In this document: piece by piece, positions 10,118 through 31,831 of the stretch
Layout: each line of letters starts with the position of its first letter
Numbering within the stretch: position 1 is the stretch's first letter
From: Desulfotalea psychrophila LSv54
Lineage (GTDB): Bacteria; Desulfobacterota; Desulfobulbia; Desulfobulbales; Desulfocapsaceae
Direction of reading: 5' to 3'
Assembly (NCBI RefSeq): GCF_000025945.1
Contig: NC_006138.1
Span: 2,790,001-2,822,000 of the forward strand
DNA length: 32,000 nt
Program-made: the position numbers and the translations under genes
The notes under the pieces: generated by a model
Seen by the model: the letters and a program-made list of their open reading frames with translations, nothing else
Told to the model about the DNA's origin: nothing
Database searches by the model: none

Positions 10118-11038
10118 CTATGCCGCAGTATAGATTTTCATCGCTTCATTTACTGTTTTTCCATCCACGGTAATGGCATAAATGGCATTGCACATCCTGA
10201 TAGCCTCTTTAAGGGCCTTTTGATGAATATTTCTGCCGGTTGCATTTCCTGAAGCTCCGCTTACATGAATTTGGTCGTAAAGCCTTTCCAGAAAGCCCTC
10301 GACATCATCGCTTGAACCTCCGGCACAAACCACCTTGGTGCGACCTGCCGCCATGACAGCCTCTTTGAATATCTCTTTTGATGCACAGTCTTCCTTCTTG
10401 GGATAATTCACCTTAACAAAATCGCTGCCCAGACATGCGGCCGCACCAGTGGCGCCCGCAATCAGATGAGGATCTTTCTCATCTGCCACTGCTTTACCAC
10501 GGGGATAGACCCATAAGACGGAGATCAACCCATGTTGATGCGCATGGGAAATAATCTGGGCGGCCTGATGCAGCATCTCGGGCTCATACTCGCTTCCCAA
10601 ATAAACCGTATAGCCCACTGCCAAGATATTTAGCCCGCTGTTTTTACGAAAGTCCACTACCTGCTGAACATCCAGCCATTGATTGCTGAAGGGGTCGGAC
10701 TGGGAGGTTTTGACAAGATTGGTTCTAGAATTCAGCTTTACCAGATAAGGGACATCCGCATAGGAACTACCATATCTGGCAATAAGGCCAAGCTGGGTCG
10801 CAAAAACACCAATATTTGCCTGACTTGCAATCCTGAAGAGATGTTCCGGATTACCGTCATCCGGGTGAATCCCTTCTCCATAAAAATCGCTATTTAAATG
10901 CTCGACTTTCTGATCGCCTGCAAATAGCATCAATCGTCCGCAATTTTGAGTTATCGCCAAATAATTGTGGATATAATTTTCTCTTTCTGCCTTTGGAACA
11001 TCCAATGGCACCAAAATATCATCTTCTTTAAGATTCAT
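10118..11038 (-). CDS. Class I aldolase of the DhnA/FbaB family (fructose-bisphosphate aldolase-like)
   Basis: Family motifs LFAGDQKVEHLN, YLVKLNSRTNL, VGYTVYLGSEYE, VLWVYPRG, SDFVKVNYP (candidate Schiff-base Lys), VVCAGGS and TGRNIHQ. The preferred start is MNLKEDD at 11038, with AGGAG 9 nt upstream. The maximal ORF extends to 11104. Confidence 0.75.
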   Translation of the reverse strand: MNLKEDDILVPLDVPKAERENYIHNYLAITQNCGRLMLFAGDQKVEHLNSDFYGEGIHPDDGNPEHLFRIASQANIGVFATQLGLIARYGSSYADVPYLVKLNSRTNLVKTSQSDPFSNQWLDVQQVVDFRKNSGLNILAVGYTVYLGSEYEPEMLHQAAQIISHAHQHGLISVLWVYPRGKAVADEKDPHLIAGATGAAACLGSDFVKVNYPKKEDCASKEIFKEAVMAAGRTKVVCAGGSSDDVEGFLERLYDQIHVSGASGNATGRNIHQKALKEAIRMCNAIYAITVDGKTVNEAMKIYTAA

Positions 11039-11377
11039 AGCTGCATTCTCCTTTTGAATTCTTTCACTCCTTTTCATCGTGGAGTACAAAGTTTCAAACA
11101 TCAATCTCTATCCTCGGGTCATGGTAGCCCCATATTCCAGACACTTCTGCTCAAAACAGGGCATTCCTCATTGATGAATGGCTTTTCCCCACAGTTTGGG
11201 CAAATACAGTCTCCACTCCTTTGCCGATGCACAGAACATCTACTTCGGTCATGTCAAGACCAGCAATTCCCTTGATACCGTACTCCCTGAACATCTCCGG
11301 ATTGAGACACCTCCCCGGACACTCTATTTTTTAAAAAAATCCATTTTTAAACAGTTAAAATCCAGTATTTTTTTCAG

Positions 11378-12634
11378 TTAACTAATCCGGAAAAGGCTCG
11401 AAGAACTCTGGGGCACGGTAGCCTTATAGAACATCGCCGTATGGTCGGCACGGATGGTATAGGGGACGCCGAAGGGAACAAAAAAAGAACTGCCCTGTTG
11501 CAGATTCAGGCTTAACTCGCCGGAGGTGACGACCACATGGGCATCTCTATTAACATCCACAAGGATGAGAATTTCCGCGCTGTGGTCTGACCCATTTTGG
11601 TGAGGTTGCGCCTCTGTCACCTCGATACAGCGCAGCTCGAACTCGGTAACGGGTGTTTTGAATACCCACTCCCGACTGTCTGGAAGTCTTGTAGGATGAA
11701 GGATCTCAGGCTCAGATCCTGCAAAACTCACATTGTTGAGTAGTTCAGGGACGTCAACGTGTTTGGACGTTAGTCCGCCCCGAATCACGTTGTTGGAGCA
11801 GGCCATGATTTCCATACCCGCTCCCTCCAGATAGGTATGCAGCACCCCGGCCGGCAGGTACATGCCTTCACCCGGTTTGAGATGAACCAAATTCAGCAAA
11901 TAAATGGAAAAAATTCCGCGATCCCGATGGCCTTGCTTTGAATATTCCCGGTCCGCCCGAAGGATCCAAAACTGGCGGTCATCACGAATAAAGGCCTTTT
12001 TACGGTCGGCTTCCGTCAGCCGCTTGATCATGGGTTCTAAAACAGCATCCACACGATCCTGGGAAAGATTCATCAAATGCCCATAAAACGACTTGAGACC
12101 GGCGGAGGTCGGTTTGAAATCCAGCTGCAATGACCGAAACTCCGGAATATCGGTAAGAACTTGGGCGATCTGGACCAATGGCCGAAAGCCTCGTAGGCCA
12201 TAAAAATCGGTGAGAGCAACGATCAGCTCCGGTTTGTGGTTGATGTCGCGGTAGTTGCGGTGCCCGGCAGAACGCGGAATACCAGCGGCATTCTCGCGAG
12301 TAAAACCTTCACGGGCACGCGCCTTCGACGGGTGGACTTGGAGGGAAAGTGGTGCGGCAGCCGATAGAACCTTAAAGAGATAGGGCAGCTTCCCTTGAAA
12401 TTTTCGAGTGACCATCGGCCCCAGGACCTCTTCGGCCGATGTTGTGATCACCTCGTTAAGGGCTACCGATCGATCCTTTACCTCAATTTCGGATGGAAGG
12501 TCGGGGTGAGCACCCATCCAGAGCTCCGCAAATGGCCGCCCTTCCGGATTTTTAACGCCCAGAAGATTGGGAATGAAACTTTTATCTCCCCAGACATAGT
12601 GCTGAATACCAGCTTGTAACGGCATAACACCCAT
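11378..12634 (-). CDS. manA: Mannose-6-phosphate isomerase, class I
   Basis: Strong by-eye match to type I PMI. Shared segments include QHYVWG, FAELWMGAHP, GKLPYLFKVLSAAAPLSLQVHPSK, ENAAGIP....RNYRDINHKPELIVALTDF, LKPGEGMYLPAGVLHTYLEG and EIMACSNNVIRGGLTSKHVDVPELL. The start is placed at MGVMPLQAGIQHYVWG (12634) because the 50 codons upstream in the maximal ORF (to 12784) look transposase-derived. Confidence 0.85.
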   Translation of the reverse strand: MGVMPLQAGIQHYVWGDKSFIPNLLGVKNPEGRPFAELWMGAHPDLPSEIEVKDRSVALNEVITTSAEEVLGPMVTRKFQGKLPYLFKVLSAAAPLSLQVHPSKARAREGFTRENAAGIPRSAGHRNYRDINHKPELIVALTDFYGLRGFRPLVQIAQVLTDIPEFRSLQLDFKPTSAGLKSFYGHLMNLSQDRVDAVLEPMIKRLTEADRKKAFIRDDRQFWILRADREYSKQGHRDRGIFSIYLLNLVHLKPGEGMYLPAGVLHTYLEGAGMEIMACSNNVIRGGLTSKHVDVPELLNNVSFAGSEPEILHPTRLPDSREWVFKTPVTEFELRCIEVTEAQPHQNGSDHSAEILILVDVNRDAHVVVTSGELSLNLQQGSSFFVPFGVPYTIRADHTAMFYKATVPQSSSSLFRIS

Positions 12635-12639
12635 GATGG

Positions 12640-13345
12640 CATCAGGTTCCTGACGATTAATTGCCTTCTTGTAAAGAAGATTTAGCATCGTTTTACGGTA
12701 CTCCTTAAATTTCTCCATCAACTTGACATAATTCAATGTTTTTTTGGGCGATATCTGATTGCAAACAAGATCATACCTGTACAAAGCATCTCTCAGATTG
12801 GCACCGGAGTCAAAACGCGTTCGTTTTAAAATATCCGCATGGGCAATTAAAACGCTCTACCATACCATTAGTCTGATTGGTTTGATCAAACGATGTTTGA
12901 TCTGTAAGGCATTGCAGTCTTTATCAAAAATATGTTTTCCTATCGGTTTTCTTTGGCCTGTAGTATGGAACGCGAAACTTTGGGTGAAGAGAGTGCCATA
13001 CAAGGAGCAAAAGACCATCCAGTGAGAGAAGGAGTGTTTTTCGCAACTCAACTACAACTCTTTCGTACTCTTTTGGCAATGTTGTCTGAAGCTTATAAGC
13101 AGTACGAGATCTATCTTCTACGCTATCACGCTCACACCAAATGCGAACGCTTATCTCAACAATCCCAAGCTCAAGAGCAAGGGTAGGCACTGGTTTATCT
13201 AATTTTTGAATTATTGCGAATTCAAGGCCTTGTGGTCGCATTTGCCTATAGCTTATGGCACAAAAATTCCTTGTAAGAAAAAAAGAGATAAACCACTGAT
13301 AAGAGTCTAGCACTCTTTCACCGCGAATGTCTAAGAATTCCTAAC
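12640..13345 (-). mobile_element. Internally deleted IS481-family transposase relic (copy 2), inverted relative to copy 1 and reading toward manA
   Basis: Minus-strand fragments RPQGLEFAIIQKLDKPVPTLALELGI, WCERDSVEDRSRTAYKLQTTL.KEYERVVVELRKTLLLSLDGLLLLVWHSLHPK, then QTNGMVERFN, F.LRCQSERC / LYRYDLVCNQISPKKTLNYVKLMEKFKEYRK. These correspond to the N-terminal and C-terminal parts of an IS481-group transposase, broken by stops and frameshifts and lacking the central catalytic region. Boundaries are approximate. Confidence 0.65.
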
Positions 13346-13481
13346 AATTGTGTTTTTTCCGGCAGATCATGCCATGGGTGTCGACGATTTCCACAGGAAA
13401 CTGAGGACGGCTATAGGGCTTGCCGGGCGGGGATTGTCACGTTCGGTATTACTAGCGATTATCCCGAAACCGGATACGGGT

Positions 13482-13493
13482 GGGGGGGGGGGG
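13482..13493 (+). repeat. Homopolymeric G12 tract in apparently non-coding DNA
   Basis: Direct reading shows ...cggatacgggt gggggggggggg acggat..., with 12 consecutive G from 13482 to 13493. Confidence 0.9.
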
Positions 13494-13670
13494 ACGGATA
13501 TCTCGAAAGGTGCGCTTTTAATAAGACGGTTTGTTGAAAATCCGGACGAAAATGCCACAAAAAAACACGTATTTCCCTGCCCGGAAGGCCTAAGGACAAT
13601 TACCGGCTATTTCCATCGACTACATCATCATAGAGAGGGGTGGTGAGCCTAGCGGCGGACTTCGGCTGAA

Positions 13671-13805
13671 GCTATCCTTACCCTGATAAGGGTCTAATAT
13701 GTTATCCGGCAAAACCATCAACGGGATTATTTGAAGGCAGTTAAATTTATCAATTACAGTAAGGCCGATGTCTGCGTAAGAGAAGACTATATCCTGTCCC
13801 TTGAG
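13671..13805 (+). pseudogene. Fragment of the 5' region of the 744-aa glycosyltransferase gene (paralogous to about 5637-5802)
   Basis: gctatccttaccct...gttatccggcaaaaccatcaacgggattatttgaaggcagttaaatttatcaattacagtaaggccgatgtctgcgtaag aligns by eye with gctatgcttaccct...gttatccgccagaaccatcaacgggattatttaaaagcggttaaatttatcaattacagcgaggccgatgtttgtgtaat (5637 onward). The fragment has an internal deletion of about 35 nt and then joins directly to the hairpin copy. Confidence 0.7.
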
Positions 13806-13811
13806 CGCTAT

Positions 13812-13853
13812 GGTGATCCGTTGCGAAAGGTTACCTTTGGGCAACGGACCACC
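13812..13853. terminator. Second copy of the long stem-loop (12-bp stem with one mismatch) downstream of the GH130-domain gene
   Basis: GGTGATCCGTTG (13812-13823) pairs with CAACGGACCACC (13842-13853). Same sequence family as 9722-9772, with a shorter loop. Confidence 0.5.
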
Positions 13854-13864
13854 GAATAACATCC

Positions 13865-15334
13865 TCAACCATTTAATAATTTAGCCAAAAGATCATCCAC
13901 AGATACCGACGCAAAGCCCGAGGCAGAATCGGACATCCCGTACGGTATAATCAGCATATCGTTATGAATAATCGCTCCGCAGGAATAGACGACATTGGGC
14001 ACATACCCTTCTCTTTCCTCCGCATTTGCCATCAACAACGGCTCCCGGAGTTGACCTATAATTTGGGAGGGATCTTCCAAATCCAGCAGTACAGCCCCCA
14101 AAGAATACCTTCTCATGGGACCCACCCCATGGGTGAGCATCAGCCACCCTTTTGCGGTTTCCATGGGAGAGCCACAATTGCCCAGTTGAATAAATTCCCA
14201 GGGATATTTAGGCTCTTGTATTTTTTGAGCATCATGCCAGACATGAATGTCATCGGAAAACATAAGGTAGTTATTCACCCCATCGTGACGGGAGATCATG
14301 GCATATTGCCCCTTAATTTTTCTCGGGAAAAAGGCCAGATTTTTATTTTGGGTATACTTACCGTGGATCGGGAATACCTGAAAATGATAAAAATCTTTTG
14401 TTTTAAGGCATTTTGGTAAAATACTATATCCGTTATACGCCGTGTAGGTTGCAAAATAGGTAATACTGCCGTCATCATCCATGAATTTGACGAATCGCGC
14501 ATCTTCAATACCGTTGCGTTCATGGGCCGAGACAGGAAAAATAACGCGTTCCGAGATAGCAGTATCCAGTGAAAAACTGATTTCATAATGAGAACTGGCC
14601 AGCCAGTTTATCGAATCGATCACCATTCTTTTACTATAGCTTAGCTCTATGTTTTCGATGCTTGCGGCAATACTTTCCTGCAATTCACGATAGATGAATT
14701 TATCTCCCAGTTTATCCATAATCGATTCGATGATATTTTTGTGAATATCCATCTCGTGCAATTTTTGCAAAAATTGTTCTTTATCATATACATGGCGTTT
14801 TAAGGCTTCCGGCAAATCAACGAATTGCCCGGCCGAGGCGAAGACCAATTCATTATTTCGGGTAATGACACCGCTTCTGAATACGATGGATGAGATATGC
14901 CCCTCCCCGATCGCCCGAAAACTGACAATAACGCGTTTTTGTCCTTCTTCCAGGTTACCCTGATCGGGATCTGCGACGATGGAAGGATTAAAGAAGGCGG
15001 CCGCCTCAATCGCGTATTCCGATGTAAAGTAGGAACCAATCAGTAATTTTCTTTCTAATGACAAGGAATCCGGAGAAACATGAAAATTCGGCTCCAGAAC
15101 GTCGTACAGTCTATCGTAATTGTCCTCAAAAATTTTTGAGATATTGCGGTGCCGTTTTGAAAAATCCTTCAGTACCTGATTGAACGCCAAATCCACTTCC
15201 TGCTTAGATAAATCCAATACTCGCTTAATTATCGTGTTCGCCCTGTCTTTGTGGCCGGGCATATAAAATCTGGCAATGACCCTTGTGGGGTCTGGATAAA
15301 ATTTTTTCGGCAATCTATTTACGGTTAGTGTCAT
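13865..15334 (-). CDS. Two-domain protein: uncharacterised N-terminal domain of about 290 aa plus a C-terminal GH130-like glycosidase/phosphorylase domain
   Basis: The start is set at MTLTVNRLPKKFYPDP, where AAGAGG lies 7 nt upstream of the ATG at 15334. The ORF-track start at 15448 has no such signal. The C-terminal half contains IEDARFVKF, ATYTAYNG, KNLAFFPRKIKGQYAMISR, GWLMLTHGVGP, YSLGAVLLDLEDP and GYVPNVVYSCGA. Confidence 0.8.
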   Translation of the reverse strand: MTLTVNRLPKKFYPDPTRVIARFYMPGHKDRANTIIKRVLDLSKQEVDLAFNQVLKDFSKRHRNISKIFEDNYDRLYDVLEPNFHVSPDSLSLERKLLIGSYFTSEYAIEAAAFFNPSIVADPDQGNLEEGQKRVIVSFRAIGEGHISSIVFRSGVITRNNELVFASAGQFVDLPEALKRHVYDKEQFLQKLHEMDIHKNIIESIMDKLGDKFIYRELQESIAASIENIELSYSKRMVIDSINWLASSHYEISFSLDTAISERVIFPVSAHERNGIEDARFVKFMDDDGSITYFATYTAYNGYSILPKCLKTKDFYHFQVFPIHGKYTQNKNLAFFPRKIKGQYAMISRHDGVNNYLMFSDDIHVWHDAQKIQEPKYPWEFIQLGNCGSPMETAKGWLMLTHGVGPMRRYSLGAVLLDLEDPSQIIGQLREPLLMANAEEREGYVPNVVYSCGAIIHNDMLIIPYGMSDSASGFASVSVDDLLAKLLNG

Positions 15335-15772
15335 TATTACCTCTTTTGGTGATTGATTATAATCGTTCGCCATGGATTTCCACAAAACTGTATGGGCCTT
15401 TCTTATTATAAATTGGAATTTTTTGAGAATCAACAAGCAATTATCCAAAAAACAACTGGCAAAATCAGCAAGAAGGGGCTCGTCATGCTGCTGCCTCCCT
15501 CCCCATGGTTAGTACCAAAGGACATGGTAGAGGAGGTGGGCTGTCGAGTGGTAACCATAGGGGAGGAGGCAAAGACAACGACCATGCAAGCCGTACAGAT
15601 AGTTCAGAACCTTCGGATAACCAAGGTCACAAAGGCAACGGAGTCAACCTACTAAAAATTATTCTGAAAGACGGCGAACTTTTCTCTTTAAAAGATGTTC
15701 GTACAAGAAGTTGAGTTGGATCGTCTCAATATATCCAGAGCGGCGGACAAGGTTCTAGATCGTCCTCTTTAA

Positions 15773-21521: not shown

Positions 21522-21645
21522 CGAGCCCGGAAATGGCCGGGGCGGATTCGCCCCGGGGATCTCCAAGCCACACCCAACCTATCATCCCCAGACCCGCCAA
21601 GACGCCTAATACGAAAAACAGCTAAACCACTAAATCTACACCTTT

Positions 21646-21674
21646 TTCATGGACAGAAGAAACCTTCCTGTGAT
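21646..21674 (+). promoter_or_regulatory. Candidate sigma70-type promoter of autotransporter gene 1
   Basis: TTCATG-17 nt-TGTGAT. The same block (TRTGATACCAT after a T-run) is conserved upstream of all three paralogues, about 90-100 nt before each ATG. Confidence 0.3.
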
Positions 21675-21760
21675 ACCATCTTTACGACAGGCAGCTCCAT
21701 CTATTTCCATCAAGACCGGGTGCTCTTTCGCCTGCCTCAAACCAGCGATAAGGAGAAAGT

Positions 21761-24700
21761 ATGAAGGATGTAGAGAGACGAGGACGGAGAAAGGTCTATG
21801 CCACCAAGAGTGCCCTGGCGGGCCTGCTGGCCCTGAGCATGGGAGCAACCAACGCCTGGGCAGGAGTTACCATCGGAGAGGGAGGAGCGGGGAGATGGGA
21901 TGAGCCATTTTATTATGCCCTCGCCACCGCCCCGGCGACAACGAGAACTGCCATCACTCATGGCAAGCCAGGAGCCCCTAATATAAAAAAGATGGCTGGT
22001 TCCGAGCCATTTCTCACCGGGATAAGAGTTGAGAGTGGTAGCCTCGACAATGAGGGAGAGATCAGGCTCTACTTCAGGAATGAAAAGGGATCTATCAGCC
22101 TCATTGGCATTATAGGCGACACCAGCCGGAACGGGGCAGACGTTGAGCTGGGGGCCGAGGGCGGCACGGCCACCTCCGCCACCGTCAAAGCCAAATCCTT
22201 CGCCTACACCTACGCCTGCGGCATACAGGGTGAGGTGGGGGACAATGAGGGCAAGATAAACATCACCGCTCAGAGCGGCACCGCCGAAGCCAACGCCGCC
22301 AAAGCCAAAACCTCCGCCTACGCCCACGCCCACGCCCACGCCTACGGAATAAGGGGTAGGGTAGGAGACAATATTGGTCACATAGAGCTCAAAGCCCTAG
22401 GCGGCAAGGCCACCGCCAAGACTACCGGCACCGCCTACGCCAATGCCTCCGCCTACGCCTACGGCATAGTGAGTAATGTGACAAACAATAGTGGGGAGAT
22501 GGAGCTCAGGGCTCAGGGCGGCACCACCAACGCCACCGCCCTCGCCAAAGCCTCCGCCTACGCCCACGCCCGTGCCCACGGAATAATGCATGGGGTGGGA
22601 AGCAATGAGGGCAAAATGACCATCACCGCTCAAGGCGGTGAGGCCGAAGCTACCGCCGCCGAAACCAACGGTCGTGTCGGCGCCACCGCCGGCGCCATCG
22701 GCATATCAGGTACGGTGGGAAACAATGAGGGCAAGATGACCATCAGAGCTACGGGCGGCAAGACCAACGGTCACGGCTACAGCTCCTCCTACGCCTACGC
22801 CGCCGGCATAAATGGTAAGGTAGGAGACAATATTGGTCATATGGAAATCAGGGCTGAGGGCGGCACGGCCACCGCCAAAGCTACCGGCACCGCCGACGCC
22901 CTGGCCTACGCCCTATCCTCCGCCCACGGCATAAAGGGTAATGTGGCAAACAATAATGGGGAAATGGAGATCAGGGCTGAGGGCGGCAAGGCCACCGCCA
23001 AGACTACCGCCAACGCGACCACCCTCGCCCTCGCCAACACCAACGCCACAGCCTACGGCATAGAGGGTCAGGTGGGAAGCAATAAGGGCAAGATGACCAT
23101 CATTGCTCAGAGCGGTAAGGCCGAAGCCACCGCCGCCAAAGCCGAAGCCTATGCCTACGCCCACGCCTGCGGCATAAAGGGTGGGGTGGGAAGCAGTAGT
23201 GGTAATATTACTGTTAGGGCAACGGGTGGTAGCGCCATTGCTACCTCCACTGCGACTGCCATTGCTAATGCCAAAGCCTATGGTATGCAGAGTTCGGTTG
23301 CAGATTTAGTAAATACGGGGGCCATAGAGGTGGTGGCACGGGCGGGACGATATTCCACCGACGGTGGAACAACCTATCACAGTGATTCCGCTACCGCCTA
23401 TGGGGTCTATTTTAATGGATTGGAGGAAAGCTCTCTTGATTCCCGTGCTCTTATTTCAGTGAGCGCCCTGCCGGCACAGGATGAGGCGGGTAAGGCAATA
23501 GCCTTAGGCACTGACAAGACTCTCCAGGCCCATCAGGTCTATAGCGGGGGAGACCTAACCATAAAGGGCTATGCCATGAAGTTTAATAACCAGGAGCAGG
23601 TTACTGCTGATTATAAAGGGACTATTGGCGTTGCCGATGGCAAAAGAGTCACCTTTGCCCCCGATGCACAAGTCTATGCCTTCATCGATAATGATTTTGG
23701 CACGGTGCCCAATTACAGCATACCTATGTTGGTTGAGGGGGAAACGCGTAACTACAATCAATTCTCCGTGGCCCAGCTTGTCGTCAGTAGCCCGGACTAT
23801 AGTATATCTTTGCTTGACGGCAATGGCGGAACACTTCAGCAACTGGCCATCGCCTACGTCCCCAAAGTTTCCACCCCCCTGGTCACGGCCCAGGTCAACC
23901 AAAAGATGCTGACCAGTGGCACCACCATTGTAGAAAAGAGCTCTTTATCGCCTATGCTTGCCATGATGGAGAGGAGTAATCCTCGCGCTTCGGCCTACGA
24001 CGGTGTTCTTCTGGCCAGCACATCACCTATCCTGACTGTCCCTGATATGGAGATTTTACCCCAAAAAAGGGGCTGGGCCTTTGCCATGCCCTATTATAGT
24101 AATGTGAGTAATAACGCCTCGCCCATGGGCTATGATGCCGATATTTATGGAGCCACAGCTGGATATAACCACTGGATAGATTCTGATCTCATCCTCGGTT
24201 TTCATGCTGGTTATGGTTCCGGTGATATTAATTATACGGGCAAGGGCTATGAGCAGAAGAAGGAGAATCTTAAGGCTGGATCCCTCGGGGTGCAAAGCCT
24301 GTATCGTTTTGCTGATGACTGGTTGTTACAGAGCATAGCCTCCTTTTATTATAGCAGTAACGATTATAGCGATAATAACCCGCTCAACCGGGAGCAGGGC
24401 GACTACCATGGCTACGGGGTGAATGCCAAGCTTGACCTTGACTATGTCTTCAGTTTTATCAATAACCGCCTGATACCCAGTGTGGGGCTGCGCTATCTCT
24501 GGCAGCACGTCGATAGCTATACCGCTTATAATCTGGACAACGCCGATGTGAACTACGGTGATATGGATGAGAATCAGCTCTATGCCAGCCTGGGCCTTGA
24601 TTGGTACGGTGATTACCAGACGGAATCAAATTGGCAGATAGTGCCCAGTCTCGGCCTGGGCATCGAGCAGGCCCTCACCGATAACGAATTTGGCAACAGC

Positions 24701-24880
24701 ATGGGAGTGGGAAGTGTCATCATTCCGGTGACAAACTCAATGGATAAGACCTCTGTCTCCGCCCGGGCCTCCATTGAGTTTGTTAAGGATTCCTATGCGC
24801 TGAGCGCTGGATATGCTGGAGCCTATTCGAGTGACACCAAGAACAGCTCCTTCTATCTGCAGATGAAGTATTTCTTTTAA
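21761..24880 (+). CDS. Type Va autotransporter paralogue 1 (1039 aa): signal peptide, repeat passenger of about 12 units, conserved linker, C-terminal beta-barrel
   Basis: AAGGAGAA Shine-Dalgarno motif 6 nt before the ATG. Signal peptide MKDVERRGRRKVYATKSALAGLLALSMGATNAWA. Tandem units of the type GI.G.VG.N.G.M.I.A.GG.A.A....AYA.A.AY. The last 270 or so aa alternate hydrophobic and polar residues, are rich in Y/G/S/N/D, and end in FYLQMKYFF, an outer-membrane beta-signal with terminal Phe. Confidence 0.85.
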   Translation: MKDVERRGRRKVYATKSALAGLLALSMGATNAWAGVTIGEGGAGRWDEPFYYALATAPATTRTAITHGKPGAPNIKKMAGSEPFLTGIRVESGSLDNEGEIRLYFRNEKGSISLIGIIGDTSRNGADVELGAEGGTATSATVKAKSFAYTYACGIQGEVGDNEGKINITAQSGTAEANAAKAKTSAYAHAHAHAYGIRGRVGDNIGHIELKALGGKATAKTTGTAYANASAYAYGIVSNVTNNSGEMELRAQGGTTNATALAKASAYAHARAHGIMHGVGSNEGKMTITAQGGEAEATAAETNGRVGATAGAIGISGTVGNNEGKMTIRATGGKTNGHGYSSSYAYAAGINGKVGDNIGHMEIRAEGGTATAKATGTADALAYALSSAHGIKGNVANNNGEMEIRAEGGKATAKTTANATTLALANTNATAYGIEGQVGSNKGKMTIIAQSGKAEATAAKAEAYAYAHACGIKGGVGSSSGNITVRATGGSAIATSTATAIANAKAYGMQSSVADLVNTGAIEVVARAGRYSTDGGTTYHSDSATAYGVYFNGLEESSLDSRALISVSALPAQDEAGKAIALGTDKTLQAHQVYSGGDLTIKGYAMKFNNQEQVTADYKGTIGVADGKRVTFAPDAQVYAFIDNDFGTVPNYSIPMLVEGETRNYNQFSVAQLVVSSPDYSISLLDGNGGTLQQLAIAYVPKVSTPLVTAQVNQKMLTSGTTIVEKSSLSPMLAMMERSNPRASAYDGVLLASTSPILTVPDMEILPQKRGWAFAMPYYSNVSNNASPMGYDADIYGATAGYNHWIDSDLILGFHAGYGSGDINYTGKGYEQKKENLKAGSLGVQSLYRFADDWLLQSIASFYYSSNDYSDNNPLNREQGDYHGYGVNAKLDLDYVFSFINNRLIPSVGLRYLWQHVDSYTAYNLDNADVNYGDMDENQLYASLGLDWYGDYQTESNWQIVPSLGLGIEQALTDNEFGNSMGVGSVIIPVTNSMDKTSVSARASIEFVKDSYALSAGYAGAYSSDTKNSSFYLQMKYFF
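22019..23400 (+). repeat. In-frame tandem coding repeats (period about 105-130 nt) in the passenger of paralogue 1
   Basis: Successive units read from the translation include GIQGEVGDNEGKINITAQSGTAEANAAKAKTSAYAHAHAHAY and GIRGRVGDNIGHIELKALGGKATAKTTGTAYANASAYAY. They continue with GIVSNVTNNSGEMELRAQGGTTNATALAKASAYAHARAH and further units. Confidence 0.85.
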
Positions 24881-24883
24881 AAA

Positions 24884-24911
24884 ATGCCCGGGAAAGATTC
24901 TCCCCGGGCAT
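24884..24911 (+). terminator. Stem-loop directly after autotransporter gene 1
   Basis: ATGCCCGGG (24884-24892) pairs with CCCGGGCAT (24903-24911), starting 4 nt after the stop. A weaker equivalent (CCGGGG/CCCCGG) follows gene 2 at about 27294-27316. Confidence 0.45.
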
Positions 24912-24998
24912 CTCCAAGCCACACCCAACCTGTCATCCCCAGACCCGCCAAGACTCCTGATGCGAGAAACAGCTAAGCCATTAGATCTCCACATTTTT

Positions 24999-25026
24999 TT
25001 GTAGACAACAGAAACCTTCCTATGAT
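24999..25026 (+). promoter_or_regulatory. Candidate sigma70-type promoter of autotransporter gene 2
   Basis: TTGTAG-16 nt-TATGAT, at the position equivalent to the blocks upstream of genes 1 and 3. Confidence 0.3.
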
Positions 25027-25120
25027 ACCATCTTTACGACAGGCAGCGCCATCGCTCCATCTATTTCCATCAAGACCGGCTGCTCTTTCGCCTGCCCCCA
25101 AGCCACCGACGAGGAGAACT

Positions 25121-27286
25121 ATGAAGGATGCAGAGAAGCGAGACGGCAGAAAAGTCTATGCCACCAGGAGTGCCCTGGCGGGCCTGCTCGCCCTGAGCAT
25201 GGGAGCAACCAACGCCTGGGCGGGTGTCACTTTCGCCGAGAAAGGAGGAGACGGGACAGATAAAAATCCATTTTACTATGCCCTCGCCACCGGCACAGCG
25301 ATAAATACGACCCCAATCAAGCATGGCACACCAGCAGGCCCCATGACAAGGAATGGCGGTGATATTTTCATTTACGGAATAAAGATCACGGGTGGCAACC
25401 TCGACAATAAGGGAGAGATCAGGATCCACTCCAAAAATGACACGGGTTCGACCAATCTCCTTGCTATTAAGAGCACTGGTGATGCCAGTAGCACAATTCA
25501 GAACGAGGCGAACATTGAACTGGAGGCCAAGGGCGGTTCCTCCACCTCCTCCTCCAGCGCCTACACCTTCGGCATAATGGGTGAGATAACAAGGAATGAG
25601 GGCAATATGACCATCAGATCTACGGGCGGCACGCTCACCGCCGCCTCCGCTGAGGCCTCTGCCGAAGCCGGCGCTGCCGGCATAGGCAGCTATGGTGATC
25701 TCTACAATCAGGGGCGGATAGAGGTGGTGGCCCAGGCAGGCCGATACTCCGCCGACGGTGGGGCAACCTATCAGAGTGATTCCGCTACGGCCTTGGGTAT
25801 TCTTTTTGCAAGGGAAGGAACCCTTGATTCCCGTGCTCCCATCGCTGTTCAGGCCAGAGGGGCAACGAATACAGCGGACAGTGAGAGATCCATTTTCAGC
25901 GGCACAGAGGAACTGAAAAGTGGAAAATTCCTTCGGGCCTATCAAGTGCTCACCTATAGTGCATTGACAATCAAAGGTTACTCCATGGTCTTTAACAACC
26001 AGGAGGAGGTGGACGAGCACTATCGGGGAGCCATCGGCACAATAGGCGACGGTACGGCAACATTTGCCCCCGATGCCGTCCTCTATGTCTTCACCGACAA
26101 TAACTTTGCCAAGGCAACAACTTACAAAATCCCCACCCTGGTGGAAGATGCGGCCATCAGCGATCAATTTACCTCGGCCCAACTGGCCCTGACCAGTCCC
26201 GACTACAGGGCCAACCTGGTGGATGGAGATGGCAAAAAACTCCAGCAACTGGCCATCGCCTACGCCCCCGAGGTTTCCACTCCCCTGGTCTCAGCACAGG
26301 TCAATCAAAAGATACTGGCCAGTGGCACCACCATTGTAAGGGCGAGCTCGTTATCGCCTATGCTTGCCAAGATGGAGAGGAGTAATCCTCGCGCTTCGGC
26401 CTACGATGGTGTTCTTCTTGCCAGCACATCACCTGTCCTGGCTGTCCCTGATATGGAGATTTTACCCCAAAAAAGGGGCTGGGCCTTTGCCATGCCCTAT
26501 TATAGTAATGTGAGTAACAACGCCTCGCCCATGGGCTATGATGCCGATATTTATGGGGCCACGGCTGGATATAACCACTGGATAGACTCTGATCTCATCC
26601 TCGGTTTTCATGCTGGTTATGGTTCCGGTGATATTAATTATACGGGCAAGGGCTATGAGCAGAAGAAGGAGAATCTTAAGGCTGGATCCCTCGGGGTGCA
26701 AAGCCTGTATCGTTTTGCTGATGACTGGTTGTTACAGAGCATAGCCTCCTTTTATTATAGCAGTAACGATTATAGCGATAATAACCCGCTCAACCGGGAG
26801 CAGGGCGACTACCATGGCTACGGGGTGAATGCCAATCTTGACCTTGACTATGTCTTTAGTTTTACCAATAATCGCCTGGTACCCAGTGTAGGCCTGCGCT
26901 ATCTCTGGCAGCACGTCGATAGCTATACCGCTTATAATCTGGACAACGCCGATGTGAACTACGGTGATATGGATGAGAATCAGCTCTATGCCAACCTGGG
27001 CCTTGATTGGTACGGTGATTATCGCACGGAATCGAATTGGCAGATAGTGCCAAGTTTGGGCTTGGGAGTTGAGCAGGCACTCACCGATAACGAATTTGGC
27101 AACAGCATGGGAGTGGGCAGTATCATCATTCCGGTGACAAACTCAATGGATAAGACCTCTGTCTCCGCCCGGGCCTCCATTGAGTTTGTTAAGGATTCCT
27201 ATGCGCTGAGCGCTGGATATGCTGGAGCCTATTCGAGTGACACCAAGAACAGCTCCTTCTATCTGCAGATGAAGTATTTCTTTTAA
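25121..27286 (+). CDS. Type Va autotransporter paralogue 2 (721 aa): same architecture with only about 4 repeat units
   Basis: The start is set at the conserved MKDAEKRDGRKVYATRSALAGLLALSMGATNAWA, with GAGGAGAA upstream. The passenger is short (GIMGEITRNEGNMTIRSTGGTLTAASAEASAEAGAA ...). The linker and barrel are nearly identical to paralogues 1 and 3 and end in FYLQMKYFF. Confidence 0.85.
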   Translation: MKDAEKRDGRKVYATRSALAGLLALSMGATNAWAGVTFAEKGGDGTDKNPFYYALATGTAINTTPIKHGTPAGPMTRNGGDIFIYGIKITGGNLDNKGEIRIHSKNDTGSTNLLAIKSTGDASSTIQNEANIELEAKGGSSTSSSSAYTFGIMGEITRNEGNMTIRSTGGTLTAASAEASAEAGAAGIGSYGDLYNQGRIEVVAQAGRYSADGGATYQSDSATALGILFAREGTLDSRAPIAVQARGATNTADSERSIFSGTEELKSGKFLRAYQVLTYSALTIKGYSMVFNNQEEVDEHYRGAIGTIGDGTATFAPDAVLYVFTDNNFAKATTYKIPTLVEDAAISDQFTSAQLALTSPDYRANLVDGDGKKLQQLAIAYAPEVSTPLVSAQVNQKILASGTTIVRASSLSPMLAKMERSNPRASAYDGVLLASTSPVLAVPDMEILPQKRGWAFAMPYYSNVSNNASPMGYDADIYGATAGYNHWIDSDLILGFHAGYGSGDINYTGKGYEQKKENLKAGSLGVQSLYRFADDWLLQSIASFYYSSNDYSDNNPLNREQGDYHGYGVNANLDLDYVFSFTNNRLVPSVGLRYLWQHVDSYTAYNLDNADVNYGDMDENQLYANLGLDWYGDYRTESNWQIVPSLGLGVEQALTDNEFGNSMGVGSIIIPVTNSMDKTSVSARASIEFVKDSYALSAGYAGAYSSDTKNSSFYLQMKYFF

Positions 27287-27405
27287 AAAATGCCCGGGGA
27301 TCCTCCACGCCCCGGCCATCGCCCCTCCCCCTGCCTGCCATCCCAGGACCGCCAGGAACCCTTATGCCCAGGAAAAGCAACTAACTCACCAAGTCTTCAG
27401 ATTTT

Positions 27406-27433
27406 TTTTAGACAACAGCCCTCCCCCTGTGAT
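27406..27433 (+). promoter_or_regulatory. Candidate sigma70-type promoter of autotransporter gene 3
   Basis: TTTTAG-16 nt-TGTGAT in the conserved block. The match to the -35 consensus is weak. Confidence 0.25.
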
Positions 27434-27526
27434 ACCATTTTCATGACAGGCAGCACCATCATTCCATCTATTTCCATCAAGACCGGCTGCTCTTTCGCCT
27501 GCCGCAAACCAGCGATAAGGAGAACT

Positions 27527-30500
27527 ATGAAGGATGTAGAGAGACGAGGACGGAGAAAGGTCTATGCCGCCAAGAGTGCCCTGGCGGGCCTGCTCGCCCT
27601 GAGCATGGGAACAACGAACGTCTGGGCAGGAGTTACCATCGGAGAGGGAGGATCGGGATACTGGAACAATCCATATTTCTATGCCCTCGCCAACGGCGAG
27701 ACGGCGACAAATACGACTCCAATCAAACATGGCGAGTCAACAGGCCCCATCATAGATAAACTGATGGCCGACAAGGGCTATCTCAGCGGGATAATGGTTG
27801 GGAGTGGCAGCCTCAACAATGAGGGAGAGATCCACCTCTACTTCAAGAATGAAACGGGGGATGTCCGCCTCTATGGCATTGAAGGCGACACCAGCCGGAA
27901 CGGGGCGGACATTGAGCTGAGGGCCGAGGTCGGCACGGCCACCTCCACCCCCGCTAAAGCCTCCGCCTTCGCCTACGGCATACAGGGTGAGGTGGGAAGC
28001 AATGAGGGCAAGATGATCATCAAAGTTGAGGGCGGCACGGCCAGCTCCGCCTCCACCTACGCCCACGCCTACGCCTACGCCTACGCCTACGCCTACGGCA
28101 TAAGGGGTGAGGTAGGAGACAATATTGGTCATATGACGATCAAGGCTGAGGGCGGCAAGGTCACCTCCAACGCTACCGGCACCGCCTACGCCACCGCCTA
28201 CGCCAAAGCCTACGGCATATGGGGTAATGTGACAAACAATAGTGGGGCGATGGAGATCAGAGCTCAGGGCAGCAAGGCCACCTCCAAGGCTACCGACAAC
28301 GCCTTCGCAGACACCAGCGCCGTCGCCTACGCCATACGGGGTACGGTGGGAAGCAATGAGGGCAAGATGAGCATCACCGCTCAGGGCGGTGAGGACGAAG
28401 CCACCAGCACCGCCCAGGCCTACGCCCAGGCCTACGACCAGGCCTACGGTATATGGAGTGGAGTAAAAAGCAATATTGGGAAGATGGGAATCAAGGCTCA
28501 GGGCGGCACGGCCACCTCCAACGCTACCAACATCGCCTACGCCTACACCCCCGCCTCTGCCTACGGCATAAAGGGTGGGGTGGGAAACAATAGTGGGGAG
28601 ATGGAGATCAGTGCTCAAGGCGGCACGGCCACCTCCACCACCGTCACCGCCAAAGCCAAATCCTTCGCCCACGCCTACGCCAAGACCTACGGCATAGAGG
28701 GTGAGGTAGGAGACAATAGGGGAAAGATGGAGATCGGGGCTGAGGGAGGCACGGCCTCCGCCTACTCCTGGACCGACGCCGAAGCCAACGCCATCGTCTC
28801 CGCCCACGGCATAGAGGGCAAGGTGGGAAAAAATAGTGGGGAGATGAAGATCAGGGCTCAAGGTGGCAGGGCCACCGCCGAAGCCACCGTTAAAGCCTTG
28901 GCCACAGCCAGCGCCGACGCCTTGGGCATAAGGGGTCAGGTTGGGAAAAATAGTAAGGAGATGAAGGTCAAGGCCACGGGCGGCACCGCCAAGACCACCA
29001 CCAATGCCACCACCGCTAGTGCCTCCGCCAACGCCTACGCCCGCGCCTCTGCTTCCGCCCACGGCATATTTGGTGGGATGGGAGGCAATAGTGGTAATAT
29101 GACCATCAGATCCCTGGGCGGCAAGGCCACCGCCTACGATACCGCCTTCGCCAACGCCATGGTCGACGCCATCGCCTACGGCATACGAGGGCAGGTGAGA
29201 AGCAATGAGGGCAAGATGGAGATCGAAACCCAGGGCGGCACCGCCGAGGCCACCGCCGCCAAAGCCACAACCTCTGCCAACGCTTGGGCCTACGGCATAG
29301 AGGGTGAGGTGGGAGACAATGATGGCAAGCTGGAGATCAGAGCTCAGAGCGGTGAGGCCAACGCCAACGCTACTGGCACCGGCACCGCCGACGCCTGGGC
29401 CGACGCCTACGGCATAAGGGGTACAGTGGGAAGCAATGGCGGCAAGATGACTATCACTGCTCAGAGTGACACCGCCACCGCCACTACCGCTGCCAAAGCC
29501 AAAACCTCCGCCTACGCCCAGGCCTACGGCATAGAGGGCAGGATAGGAGACAATATTGGTCATATGGTGATCAAGGCTCAGGGCGGCAAGGCCACCTCCA
29601 AGACTACCGGCACCGCCTGGGCCTGGGCCTGGGCCGACGCCTATGGCATAGATGGTGGGGTGGGAAGCAATGAGGGTAAGATGACCATCAGGGCTCAGGG
29701 CGGTGAGGCCGAAGCCACCGCCGCCGACGCCAATGCCTACACCATCGCCGCCGCCCACGGCATAGAGGGCAAAGTGGAAAAAAATAGTGGGGAGATGGAG
29801 ATCAGGGCTCAGGGTGGCACCACCAACGCCACCACCACCACCAACGCCAAAGCCTCCGCCGACGCCAGCGCCCGGGCCTTCGGCATAGAGGGTCAGGTGG
29901 GAAGCAATGAGGGCAATATGAACATCGGGGCTCAGGGCGGTGAGGCCGAAGCCACTGCTGCTGAAACCACCGCCTACGGCAACGCCGACGCCCGGGCCAA
30001 GGCCTACGCCACCGCCTCCGCCTACGGCATAATTGGTGGGGTGGGAAGCAATGAGGGCAAGATGACCATCACGGCCACAGGCGGCAAGGCCAACGGTCAC
30101 AGCTACATCTCCTCCTACGCCTTCGCCTCCGGCATAGAGGGTGATGTGGGAAAAAATAGTGGGGAAATGGAGATCAGGGCTGAGGGCGGCACGGCCACCA
30201 CCACCGGCACCGGCACCACCAAGGCCTATGCAAGGGCCATTGGCATAGGCAGCTCTGCTGATCTCTACAATGAGGGGCAGCTAGAGGTGATGGCCCGGGC
30301 GGGACGATATTCCACCGATGGCGGAACAACGTATCAGAGTGATTCTGCCAGGGCCGTGGGTATTTCTTTTTCAGGGGAGGCAGAACTTGACTCCCGTGCT
30401 CTTATTTCAGTGAGCGCCCTGCCGGCACAGGATGAGGCGGGTAAGGCAATAGCCTTAGGCACTGGCAAGACTCTCCACGCCTATCAAGTCTATAGCGGGG

Positions 30501-31831
30501 AAGACTTAAGCATAAAGGGCTATGCCATGAAGTTTAATAATCAGGCGCAGGTTACTGCTGATTATAAGGGAACTATTGGCGTTGCCGAGGGCAAAAGAGT
30601 CACCTTTGCCCCCGATGCACAAGTCTATGCCTTCACCGATAATGATTTTGGCAAGGTGCCCAATTACAGCATACCTATGTTGGTTGAGGGGGAGACTCGC
30701 AGATATAATCAATTCTCCGCGGCCCAGCTTGTCGTCAGTAGCCCGGACTATAGTATATCTTTGCTTGACAGTAATGGCGGAACACTTCAAAGGCTGGCCA
30801 TAAAGTATACTCCCGAGGTTTCCACTCCTCTGGTCTCAGCACAGGTCAATCAAAAGATGCTGGCCAGTGGCACCACCATTGTAACGAACAACTCTTTATC
30901 GCCTATGCTTGCCATGATGGACAGGAGCAATCCTCAAACTTCGGCCTACGACGGTGTTCTTCTTGCCAGCACATCACCTGTCCTGGCTGTCCCTGATATG
31001 GAGATTTTACCCCAAAAAAGGGGCTGGGCCTTTGCCATGCCCTATTATAGTAATGTGAGTAACAATGCCTCGCCCATGGGCTATGATGCCGATATTTATG
31101 GGGCCACGGCTGGATATAACCACTGGATAGACTCTGATCTCATCCTTGGTTTTCATGCTGGTTATGGTTCCGGTGATATTAATTATACGGGCAAGGGCTA
31201 TGAGCAGAAGAAGGAGAATCTTAAGGCTGGATCCCTCGGGGTGCAAAGCCTGTATCGTTTTGCTGATGACTGGTTGTTACAGAGCATAGCCTCCTTTTAT
31301 TATAGCAGTAACGATTATAGCGATAATAACCCGCTCAACCGGGAGCAGGGCGACTACCATGGCTACGGGGTGAATGCCAATCTTGACCTTGACTATGTCT
31401 TTAGTTTTACCAATAATCGTCTGGTACCCAGTGTAGGCCTGCGCTATCTCTGGCAGCACGTCGATAGCTATACCGCTTATAATCTGGACAACGCCGACAT
31501 TCACTACGGTGATATGGATGAAAATCAGCTCTATGCCAACCTGGGTCTTGATTGGTACGGTGATTACCAAACGGAATCAAATTGGCAGATAGTGCCCAGT
31601 CTCGGCCTGGGCATCGAGCAGGCCCTCACCGATAACAAATTTGGCAACAGCATGGGAGTGGGCAGTATCATCATTCCGGTGACAAACTCAATGGATAAGA
31701 CCTCTGTCTCCGCCCGGGCCTCCATTGAGTTTGTTAAGGATTCCTATGCGCTGAGCGCTGGATATGCTGGAGCCTATTCGAATGACACCAAGAACAGCTC
31801 CTTCTATCTGCAGATGAAGTATTTCTTTTAA
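27527..31831 (+). CDS. Type Va autotransporter paralogue 3 (1434 aa): same architecture with about 23 repeat units
   Basis: The start is set at the conserved MKDVERRGRRKVYAAKSALAGLLALSMGTTNVWA, with AAGGAGAA at 27517-27524. It has a long run of GI.G.VG.N.G.M.I.A.GG units, and its linker and barrel are nearly identical to the other two copies. It ends in FYLQMKYFF. Confidence 0.85.
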   Translation: MKDVERRGRRKVYAAKSALAGLLALSMGTTNVWAGVTIGEGGSGYWNNPYFYALANGETATNTTPIKHGESTGPIIDKLMADKGYLSGIMVGSGSLNNEGEIHLYFKNETGDVRLYGIEGDTSRNGADIELRAEVGTATSTPAKASAFAYGIQGEVGSNEGKMIIKVEGGTASSASTYAHAYAYAYAYAYGIRGEVGDNIGHMTIKAEGGKVTSNATGTAYATAYAKAYGIWGNVTNNSGAMEIRAQGSKATSKATDNAFADTSAVAYAIRGTVGSNEGKMSITAQGGEDEATSTAQAYAQAYDQAYGIWSGVKSNIGKMGIKAQGGTATSNATNIAYAYTPASAYGIKGGVGNNSGEMEISAQGGTATSTTVTAKAKSFAHAYAKTYGIEGEVGDNRGKMEIGAEGGTASAYSWTDAEANAIVSAHGIEGKVGKNSGEMKIRAQGGRATAEATVKALATASADALGIRGQVGKNSKEMKVKATGGTAKTTTNATTASASANAYARASASAHGIFGGMGGNSGNMTIRSLGGKATAYDTAFANAMVDAIAYGIRGQVRSNEGKMEIETQGGTAEATAAKATTSANAWAYGIEGEVGDNDGKLEIRAQSGEANANATGTGTADAWADAYGIRGTVGSNGGKMTITAQSDTATATTAAKAKTSAYAQAYGIEGRIGDNIGHMVIKAQGGKATSKTTGTAWAWAWADAYGIDGGVGSNEGKMTIRAQGGEAEATAADANAYTIAAAHGIEGKVEKNSGEMEIRAQGGTTNATTTTNAKASADASARAFGIEGQVGSNEGNMNIGAQGGEAEATAAETTAYGNADARAKAYATASAYGIIGGVGSNEGKMTITATGGKANGHSYISSYAFASGIEGDVGKNSGEMEIRAEGGTATTTGTGTTKAYARAIGIGSSADLYNEGQLEVMARAGRYSTDGGTTYQSDSARAVGISFSGEAELDSRALISVSALPAQDEAGKAIALGTGKTLHAYQVYSGEDLSIKGYAMKFNNQAQVTADYKGTIGVAEGKRVTFAPDAQVYAFTDNDFGKVPNYSIPMLVEGETRRYNQFSAAQLVVSSPDYSISLLDSNGGTLQRLAIKYTPEVSTPLVSAQVNQKMLASGTTIVTNNSLSPMLAMMDRSNPQTSAYDGVLLASTSPVLAVPDMEILPQKRGWAFAMPYYSNVSNNASPMGYDADIYGATAGYNHWIDSDLILGFHAGYGSGDINYTGKGYEQKKENLKAGSLGVQSLYRFADDWLLQSIASFYYSSNDYSDNNPLNREQGDYHGYGVNANLDLDYVFSFTNNRLVPSVGLRYLWQHVDSYTAYNLDNADIHYGDMDENQLYANLGLDWYGDYQTESNWQIVPSLGLGIEQALTDNKFGNSMGVGSIIIPVTNSMDKTSVSARASIEFVKDSYALSAGYAGAYSNDTKNSSFYLQMKYFF
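27788..30360 (+). repeat. In-frame tandem coding repeats in the passenger of paralogue 3
   Basis: About 23 units counted by eye, from GIMVGSGSLNNEGEIHLYF to GIGSSADLYNEGQLEVMARAGRYSTDGGTTYQSDSARAV. Unit length is 35-48 aa. Confidence 0.85.
28058..28096 (+). repeat. In-frame hexanucleotide microsatellite (GCCTAC)5 encoding YAHAYAYAYAYAY
   Basis: Five perfect GCCTAC units at 28067-28096, preceded by tacgcccac. Shorter analogues are (GCCCAC)3 at 22322-22339 (AHAHAH) and (GCCTGG)3 at 29615-29632 (AWAWAW). Confidence 0.9.

Follow-up and report, generated by a model that had tools for sequence, protein, structure and literature searches.

In-frame hexanucleotide tracts and the alanine-alternating tail strand of a passenger repeat in tandem autotransporters of Desulfotalea psychrophila

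Three tandem, paralogous genes in a stretch of 32,000 nucleotides (nt) of Desulfotalea psychrophila LSv54 (the window; contig NC_006138.1, positions 2,790,001 to 2,822,000), here called A, B and C, encode type Va autotransporters, and within the passenger repeats of A and C lie three perfect hexanucleotide microsatellites. On balance, and with moderate confidence, we read these tracts as the tail strands of an autotransporter solenoid repeat of about 39 residues, derived from hexamers, with alanines in and the alternate residues (X) out, together forming the variable face of an adhesin. The tracts would encode the C-terminal strand, or tail, of the passenger repeat in the three autotransporters. 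The conserved tail alanines would point into a tightly packed interior and the X residues outward, with X being Tyr by default and diversified to His, Asn, Asp, Ser, Phe, Trp, Lys and others. The outer face is predicted to be flat and Tyr-rich but patchy, with one near-continuous aromatic ladder at the corner position before Gly-Ile. The DNA of the tail would be a decayed (GCC-NNC)n array, in which new Ala-X pairs and same-residue runs (AYAYAY, AHAHAH, AWAWAW) may arise by duplication or slippage of GCC-TAC-type hexamers and would then diverge by single-base changes.

The microsatellites lie where a preliminary description of this DNA had placed them. An exact-pattern search found (GCCTAC)5 at 28067-28096, (GCCCAC)3 at 22322-22339 and (GCCTGG)3 at 29615-29632, the first appearing as three overlapping matches to (GCCTAC)3, equal to five perfect copies. 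For each of the three tracts, 100 dinucleotide-preserving shuffles gave an expectation of 0 matches. Tandem Repeats Finder reported period-6 arrays, a repeat at the unit length of 117 nt and, at higher order, periods of 234 and 351 nt. The tracts had also been described as in frame within the passenger repeats, and this was seen in genes A and C, two of the three paralogues. On the forward strand, the span 28058-28096, translated in the gene C frame, reads YAHAYAYAYAYAY (Y-A-H-(AY)5, including the perfect (GCCTAC)5) and is the tail of the first full repeat unit of that gene. Alignment of A with C puts the gene A tract, AYAHAHAHAY at 22316-22345 (+), which includes (GCCCAC)3, in the paralogous position. 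The third tract, AWAWAWADAY at 29615-29644 (+), belongs to gene C and begins with (GCCTGG)3.

A change in copy number of a 6-nt in-frame unit adds or removes Ala-X pairs and shifts the length of the strand. As such a step leaves the reading frame intact and does not alter the in/out parity of the strand, length changes of this kind should be structurally tolerable. The three exact tracts share with contingency loci the presence of a perfect short tandem repeat inside a gene. Classical contingency loci, however, switch expression by frameshift, which a 6-nt unit cannot do, and switching by repeat number, whether through frameshift or promoter spacing, does not apply to these in-frame tracts.

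The repeat array of gene C (27977-30241, +) contains about 19-20 units of about 117 nt, 35-48 amino acids (aa) long with a mode of 39, and a unit search found 9-10 units of the same kind in gene A (22220-23281, +). The unit has the consensus GIxGxVGxNxGxMxIxAQGGxA, followed by a variable stretch and then AxAxAxAx, the tail being (Ala-X)5, and unit length varies mostly within or just ahead of the tail. Counting back from the next GI, Ala occupies positions -2, -4, -6, -8 and -10 in 27, 25, 21, 22 and 22 of 29 units. At position -1 the same units have Tyr (16), His (5), Phe (2) or Cys (2) as the main residues, while positions -3 to -9 are mixtures of Tyr, Ser, Asp, His, Lys, Gln, Arg, Asn, Thr and Trp.

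The preliminary description had nearly every unit ending in an (Ala-aromatic)n stretch, which is too strong. Among the 30 tails of A and C, 22 end in Ala-Tyr/His/Phe/Trp, but at least two consecutive Ala-aromatic pairs occur in only 10, and at least three in only four. Aromatic residues make up 46% of the X residues of these tails, the remainder being otherwise polar or charged; the composition is Y47, S18, H11, T9, K8, N8, D7 and others. What the tails have in common is (Ala-X)5, of which the pure Ala-aromatic runs are extreme examples. In homologous 'DNIGH' units the 10-residue tail is kept, and X reads YNSYY, YTYKY or WWWDY. Certain unit subtypes, for example the 'DNIGH…KTTGTA' and 'SNEGKMTITAQGGEAEATAA' types, recur in both A and C, and higher-order repeats of 351 nt (three units) and 234 nt (two units) are visible at 27959-28637 and 29252-29698.

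We modelled the gene C passenger (window 27623-31024) with AlphaFold2, using a 32-sequence alignment. The model is all-beta, with a mean predicted local distance difference test score (pLDDT) of 86.9 and a predicted template modelling score (pTM) of 0.83, and nearly all 10-residue repeat blocks score above 90. Each unit consists of four predicted strands, (Ala-X)5-GIx, VGxN, MxIxAx and xATSxA. The longest is the one running from the Ala-X tail through Gly-Ile, as in HAYAYAYAYAYGIR at model residues 148-161, which corresponds to the tract at 28058-28096. In the gene A model the AYAHAHAHAY tract is covered by strands 185-189 and 192-198, and the strand pattern agrees with that of C; AWAWAWADAY is likewise predicted as a strand, in register with the other units. 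The tracts are thus modelled as ordered beta-strand rather than as disordered segments, with 10-residue block mean pLDDT of 88-98. Register between repeats, which the preliminary description had made conditional on structure prediction, is also borne out by the models: mapping of DSSP assignments places the tail strand between -11 and +3 relative to the GI anchor in every unit of two separately modelled paralogues. Alternating strands that are in register place the aromatic residues on one face.

From these models we infer that the passenger is an in-register beta-solenoid in which, on the simplest reading, each 39-residue unit forms a single wide and flattened coil and the 14-residue tail strand lies opposite MxIxAx-GG-xATSxA. 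Two coils per unit, each of about 19.5 residues, would come close to the 19-residue rungs usual in autotransporters, but this is less likely, because the strands divide unevenly (23 + 16), the run of five alanines is unmatched in the other half, and Foldseek found no canonical beta-helix.

No significant fold match to the C passenger model was found in the PDB with Foldseek, the best being Hbp (E 0.39, template modelling score over the query, TMq, 0.13), with Ag43 at E about 5. The passenger matched no Pfam or NCBIfam passenger family at E<=0.1, including Pertactin, AIDA and PATR, and searches of PDB sequences with phmmer and hmmsearch returned only spurious matches. Neither sequence nor fold similarity identifies a three-sided beta-helix of the pertactin/AIDA type. 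A phmmer match to ribosomal protein uS11 (E 0.1) was judged to be chance, and matches to designer 'Cake' propeller profiles were dismissed as spurious, as they rested on one 8-residue motif with a per-stretch E of about 4e3.

Conservation suggests that the X/aromatic residues face outward and the alanines inward, and we regard this orientation as likely. When about 730 tail units of about 55 family members are compared, Ala predominates at the even positions (374-544 counts at each), with Val, Ser, Thr and Gly as alternates, and the odd positions contain Tyr plus Asp, Glu, Asn, Ser and Arg. Adjacent units in the window have Trp beside Asp, Asn or Ser at the same X position, swaps that are incompatible with a packed core. 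When substitution rates were pooled over unit pairs by the Nei-Gojobori method, the X positions had a non-synonymous rate (dN) of 1.08, greater than the synonymous rate (dS) of 0.60, and the conserved core positions had a dN of 0.11. The Ala codons of the tails are nearly invariant (dS 0.07).

The reverse arrangement, in which the aromatics face inward as a core ladder that stabilises the solenoid and the alanines lie on the surface, seems to us unlikely, although it does account for some features. Strict alternation without a bulge would put Tyr(-1) on the same face as Ile2, which is invariant (28 of 28 units) and apparently a core residue. A flat cross-section would place the tail opposite strands whose inward residues are small (A17, G19/G20, A22, A24), and this geometry would leave room for large side chains. 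Position -1 is also the most conserved X in the family (Y302, V57, T53, F35 of about 730 units). However, across the family Asp, Glu, Asn, Arg, Lys or Gln account for 20-50% of the residues at positions -3 to -9, and in the window it is at these positions that Trp is exchanged for Ser or Asp between adjacent units. The excess of dN over dS at the X positions also argues against a buried location, while the Ala sites accept only small or Val substitutions, as expected of a tight interior. The stabilising role proposed for the ladder in the preliminary description implies buried aromatics, and the family pattern is the opposite, with Ala conserved and X variable and often charged.

The outward orientation of the aromatics has difficulties of its own. 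An unbroken strand would put Tyr(-1) on the face of Ile2, so pointing the alanines inward needs a two-residue arc or bulge at Tyr-Gly. In many units, moreover, DSSP breaks the strand over two residues, at -6/-5. The conflict between Tyr(-1) and Ile2 would disappear with a standard two-residue arc at Tyr-Gly, which would explain the invariant Gly as well.

A continuous Tyr/His/Trp ladder along the fibre, as first proposed, exists only in reduced form. Only the last tail position, -1, comes close (22 of 30 aromatic), and this column is interrupted by Leu, Ser, Ile and Cys. The other X columns are broken by Ser, Asp, Asn, Lys, Gln and Arg: position -9 forms an aromatic column only in the tails preceding C units 2-7, and positions -3, -5 and -7 are mixed. 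Aromatic pairs between adjacent units are more frequent in gene C than in shuffles (27 versus 20.6-22.9, p 0.001-0.04), and gene A has no excess.

The DNA of the tails is distinct from that of the rest of the repeat. Tail Ala is encoded by GCC in 111 of 117 cases, and tail Tyr by TAC in 41 of 45, against 16 of 73 in the rest of genes A and C. The third codon position is C at a frequency of 0.78-0.82 in the tails, against 0.32-0.33 in the corresponding cores (Fisher p 8e-14 and 5e-32) and about 0.35 elsewhere in the genes. It is this tail-specific codon usage, rather than the single (GCCTAC)5 tract, that is the real anomaly, because the chance of a perfect tract hinges on the null model. A perfect (AY)5 has a probability of about 6e-5 under the codon usage of the rest of the genes (TAC about 25%, GCC about 58%) and of about 0.29 under the usage of the passenger itself (TAC about 94%, GCC about 83%).

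The core codons of the same units ruled out general codon bias as the explanation of tail GCC and TAC. GC-biased conversion as their source was ruled out as well, since these cores use the AT-ending codons ATA, AAT, GGT, GGA and GCT.

The contrast between tail and core recurs outside this genome. We compared homologue loci in three other genomes (L001:7989-10916, L002:501-3575 and L003:501-3377), whose products have about 30-47% aa identity to the window proteins. In L001, GCC encodes 16 of 30 tail alanines and none of 24 core alanines; in L003 the figures are 29 of 32 and 3 of 19; and in L002 the contrast is weaker but has the same direction. L003 has a perfect (GCCTAC)3 of its own in its first full unit, which is the N-proximal position taken by the longest run in window genes A and C. 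L001, by contrast with these uniform tracts, writes AYAYAY in mixed codons (GCC TAC GCA TAC GCG TAT), which argues that the amino-acid pattern is selected independently of any microsatellite.

We favour a process of birth and decay, in which GCC-TAC-type hexamers would duplicate or homogenise by slippage and then change by point mutation, because several observations, taken together, point that way. The tail codon signature is present in four genomes; 56% of the X codons in the window genes are TAC or one step from TAC; the paralogous tracts of A and C align in register and differ in the number of hexamers, TAC(CAC)3TAC against TAC-CAC-(TAC)5, or five against seven; homologous 'DNIGH' units retain the 10-residue tail but differ in X; and the three adjacent TGG codons would require six independent changes from TAC. 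Slippage is consistent with the tail GCC/NNC usage of the four genomes, with the homogenised CAC and TGG runs and with the difference of five and seven hexamers between A and C.

Whole-unit processes also appear to have left a mark on these arrays. Across 28 units the synonymous codons are fixed by position, with Ile2 always ATA (28 of 28), Ile15 always ATC (24 of 24) and Asn9 always AAT (27 of 27), and Gly4 GGT, Gly7 GGA, Ala17 GCT and Ala22 GCC are nearly invariant. Differences at the variable unit positions of the two arrays (22220-23281 and 27977-30241) are mainly non-synonymous (dN 0.79 versus dS 0.57). To judge from the sequences, this combination of fixed codons and divergent variable sites looks like concerted evolution or recent amplification, plus diversification of the surface.

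Several observations weigh against hexamer slippage. The tracts are short (five, three and three copies), same-residue runs exceed those of column-shuffled tails only marginally (p 0.04-0.06), and the perfect (AY)5 is unremarkable, at the 0.29 given above, under the codons of the passenger itself. Fixed synonymous codons across the units could mean that part of the TAC/GCC uniformity comes from recent unit amplification. The clusters at 90% identity of five homologues contained no tail-length variants, their sole indel being a 9-aa deletion in the core motif of P0198. Variants were sought elsewhere too. A scan of genome contigs for strain variants of the tracts gave one distant locus only, L001, at 46% identity; metagenome contigs yielded nothing by a protein-pattern scan and nothing by a DNA scan with a 32-nt tract flank; and an exact look-up of protein A found no record elsewhere.

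It is possible, then, that the microsatellites are passive by-products of a selected (Ala-X)n motif and of 117-nt units recently amplified and homogenised, with no slippage of hexamers and with tracts that are stable today. The codon-based probability, the position-specific synonymous codons across whole units, the unit-level amplification evident in the 234- and 351-nt higher-order repeats, and the lack of tract-length variants in the homologue clusters would all fit. What holds us back is that the bias to C-ending codons is confined to the tail and spares the core of the same units, and that it recurs in homologues of only about 30-47% aa identity in three other genomes, which a recent amplification in one genome cannot explain. 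The six changes needed for TGG-TGG-TGG, and the two hexamers by which paralogues A and C differ within the tract, also tell against it.

If hexamer birth and decay is indeed the source of the tails, then a short in-frame DNA repeat would write and rewrite the outer side of a folded beta-strand and leave its inner alanine side unchanged, and the tail GCC/NNC signature across four distant genomes would be the footprint of microsatellite birth and decay inside a structured protein.

By analogy with other solenoid autotransporters that lack enzymes, the most likely role of the X face is as the variable binding face of a surface adhesin, serving self-association or the binding of a polymeric or planar ligand such as polysaccharide. 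As A, B and C have no enzymatic domain, a role in adhesion or aggregation is the default expectation. The Tyr, Ser, Asp, Asn and His make-up of the presumed outer face is consistent with it. The gene neighbourhood lends no help here, as it gives no functional hint.

The preliminary description had raised binding of metals or minerals, or a path for charge hopping, as possible functions. AHAHAH would then be a His-X-His chelating strand and the Tyr/Trp ladders a route for electrons. It is established that metals can be chelated by His residues two positions apart (i and i+2) on an exposed beta-strand, and the free peptide Ac-HAHAHAHAH binds Zn(II) with a Kd of about 1.8 µM (PMC11938343), so by analogy an exposed AHAHAH strand could do the same. 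Desulfobulbales are, moreover, a group with extracellular redox biology. We nevertheless consider this function very improbable. There is one His run only, in one paralogue only (gene A), and across the family X is mostly Tyr, Asp, Asn or Ser rather than His. The sole continuous column, at -1, is broken by Leu, Ser, Ile and Cys, which does not suit a charge-hopping path, and we saw neither redox cofactor motifs nor haem-binding sites in the three translations. The neighbouring genes offer no contextual link to metals or charge transfer.

Among known systems the proteins come closest to the type Va adhesins such as pertactin, Ag43, AIDA-I/TibA and Hbp, with which they share a signal peptide, a repetitive all-beta passenger, a helical linker and a 12-stranded PF03797 barrel. 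They also share the C-terminal aromatic residue (…KYFF) and, as in many adhesin loci, the arrangement as tandem paralogues. They differ in the unit, which has about 39 residues where the beta-helical passengers of type Va proteins have about 19-25 per rung, and in the (Ala-X)5 strand, which has no counterpart in the passengers of pertactin, Ag43, AIDA-I or Hbp. The chlamydial Pmp proteins (GGA[ILV], FxxN) are similar in having short-motif passengers with GG-A and an Asn turn and in forming paralogous families. The order and spacing of the motif differ, however (here N-x-G-x-M-x-I-x-A-x-GG-x-A), the Ala-X tail is missing in Pmp, and a Pfam scan did not match the chlamydial Pmp repeat at E<=0.1.

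Two further comparisons concern how such a strand might work and how its DNA might behave. In the solenoids of insect and bacterial antifreeze proteins, and of ice-nucleation proteins with their Tyr/Thr ladders, one strand displays alternate residues on a flat face and small residues thin the interior, as proposed here. Yet there is no match to them in sequence or fold (MpAFP 3p4g, E 8.5), the residues displayed here are a mixture of Tyr, Ser, Asp, His, Trp and Lys rather than a uniform Thr array, and only one column is ladder-like. The Ser-Asp repeats of staphylococcal ClfA/Sdr are also surface dipeptide repeats encoded by in-frame DNA of 6-nt periodicity, in which slippage or recombination is neutral to the frame. 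The staphylococcal repeats run to hundreds of nt, form an extended stalk and have documented strain variation, whereas the tracts described here are 18-30 nt long, lie inside a folded strand and have so far shown no variation.

The passenger family is rare and uncharacterised. Of 1.84 billion representative proteins, a profile of 28 units matched only 55 at E<=1e-3, and at E<=1e-10 the number fell to 25. When 5.8 billion clusters were searched by a word index, 31 matched, the best of which, apart from the paralogue A of the window itself, was 38% identical. Named members come from Pseudovibrio, a metagenome-assembled genome (MAG) of Phycisphaerales and an uncultured deltaproteobacterial MAG, and all carry generic names only. 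Literature searches on tyrosine and aromatic ladders in autotransporters, on hexanucleotide slippage in surface proteins and on autotransporters of Desulfobulbaceae and cable bacteria turned up no account of the repeat. A bolder proposal, which we put forward tentatively and think doubtful as it stands, is that the family represents a class of beta-solenoid of its own, made of wide coils of about 39 residues, with an alanine-zipper interior and a display face that is Tyr by default, is continually rebuilt by GCC-TAC slippage and is diversified by single-base steps (Tyr to His, Asn, Asp, Ser or Phe). Conserved from Desulfobacterota to Pseudovibrio and Phycisphaerales, such a solenoid would serve adhesins as a natural scaffold of low complexity for generating diversity. 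Were the solenoid confirmed, its architecture would be one that neither Pfam nor the PDB yet represents among autotransporter passengers. A rigid solenoid of about 20 coils, each showing alternate residues of a 10-residue strand, could also be attractive as a scaffold on which to engineer binding surfaces.

The three genes lie on the same strand. Gene A (21761-24880, +) encodes 1039 aa, gene C (27527-31831, +) 1434 aa, and gene B (25121-27286, +), the short paralogue, encodes 721 aa, in which only one or two repeat units can be recognised, one of them detected by the unit search. They are type Va (monomeric) autotransporters, an assignment that follows from the PF03797 domain in all three, the signal peptides, and the gene A model, in which a helix precedes a barrel that matches known translocators. 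The PF03797 beta-barrel matches, at 24074-24814 in A (E 7.2e-31), 26480-27220 in B (E 2.9e-31) and 31025-31765 in C (E 8.1e-31), all on the forward strand, span 253 of the 255 profile positions (2-254). Signal peptides are predicted from the translations at 21761-21862 (A), 25121-25222 (B) and 27527-27628 (C; MKDVERRGRRKVYAAKSALAGLLALSMGTTNVWA), on the forward strand. By eye they have a charged N-region, a hydrophobic core and V/A-W-A ahead of Gly, and A and C follow the pattern MKDVERRGRRKVYA[AT]KSALAGLLALSMG[AT]TN[AV]WA then Gly, with B similar.

The full-length AlphaFold2 model of gene A (mean pLDDT 89.0, pTM 0.80) has a long helix at 705-739 directly before the barrel strands at 771-1038, and the gene C passenger model ends in a helix at 1069-1101. 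With Foldseek the gene A barrel matched EstA (E 1.1e-12), AaaA, NalP (template modelling score over the target, TMt, 0.80-0.81) and the EspP, BrkA and AIDA-I translocators.

The likely start of gene C is the ATG at 27527, with AAGGAG just 5' of it. The mechanical open reading frames (ORFs) of C, which begins at 27290, and of B run 79 and 33 codons 5' of the conserved MKD… start (27290-27526 and 25022-25120) and are Pro/Ser-rich there. To judge from the alignment with A and from the AAGGAG motif, these extensions are not translated. A promoter-like element, TAGACA-18-TACCAT with a TG extension, precedes gene C at 27409-27438 (+), with equivalents ahead of A (21650-21679, +) and B (25002-25031, +), all of them consensus matches only. 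Runs of T (T5, T7 and T8, at 21642-21649, 24994-25001 and 27401-27409) lie directly 5' of these T[GA]GACA-18-TACCAT elements before A, B and C, and could be UP-element-like or variable homopolymers.

The last 600 nt of A, B and C are 96-97% identical, the upstream regions of about 200 nt are conserved too, and A and C are 92% identical over their last 1500 nt. A tandem locus of this kind (21761-31831) would be an obvious substrate for gene conversion or unequal recombination that swaps or deletes passenger arrays.

An antisense ORF of 787 aa lies opposite the gene C repeats (27737-30100, -), and others are at 25070-26248 (-) and 21737-22381 (-). The one in gene C is codon-aligned with the sense frame, its limits being sense TCA 27737 and CTA 30281. 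It is open only because TTA, CTA and TCA codons are avoided in the passenger, and it almost certainly does not represent a gene.

The neighbouring genes are housekeeping or carbohydrate genes (two GT4, two GH130, phosphomannose isomerase, DeoC, MutY, AzlCD, an iron-type alcohol dehydrogenase and HAD). The closest named relatives of the MutY gene, 50-57% identical, are in Desulfobulbaceae, Desulforhopalus and Desulfopila, and on this one gene the host would probably belong to the Desulfobulbales. It appears to be an environmental relative of sulfate reducers, and the findings have no bearing on pathogenicity. A 589-aa ORF at 1504-3273 (-) has no Pfam match at E<=0.001. The carbohydrate cluster, with no evident link to the autotransporters, extends over 5492-15448 and comprises two GT4 glycosyltransferases, one of them fused to a weak GH88-like region, two GH130 mannoside-phosphorylase-like genes, a type I phosphomannose isomerase and a DeoC/LacD aldolase.

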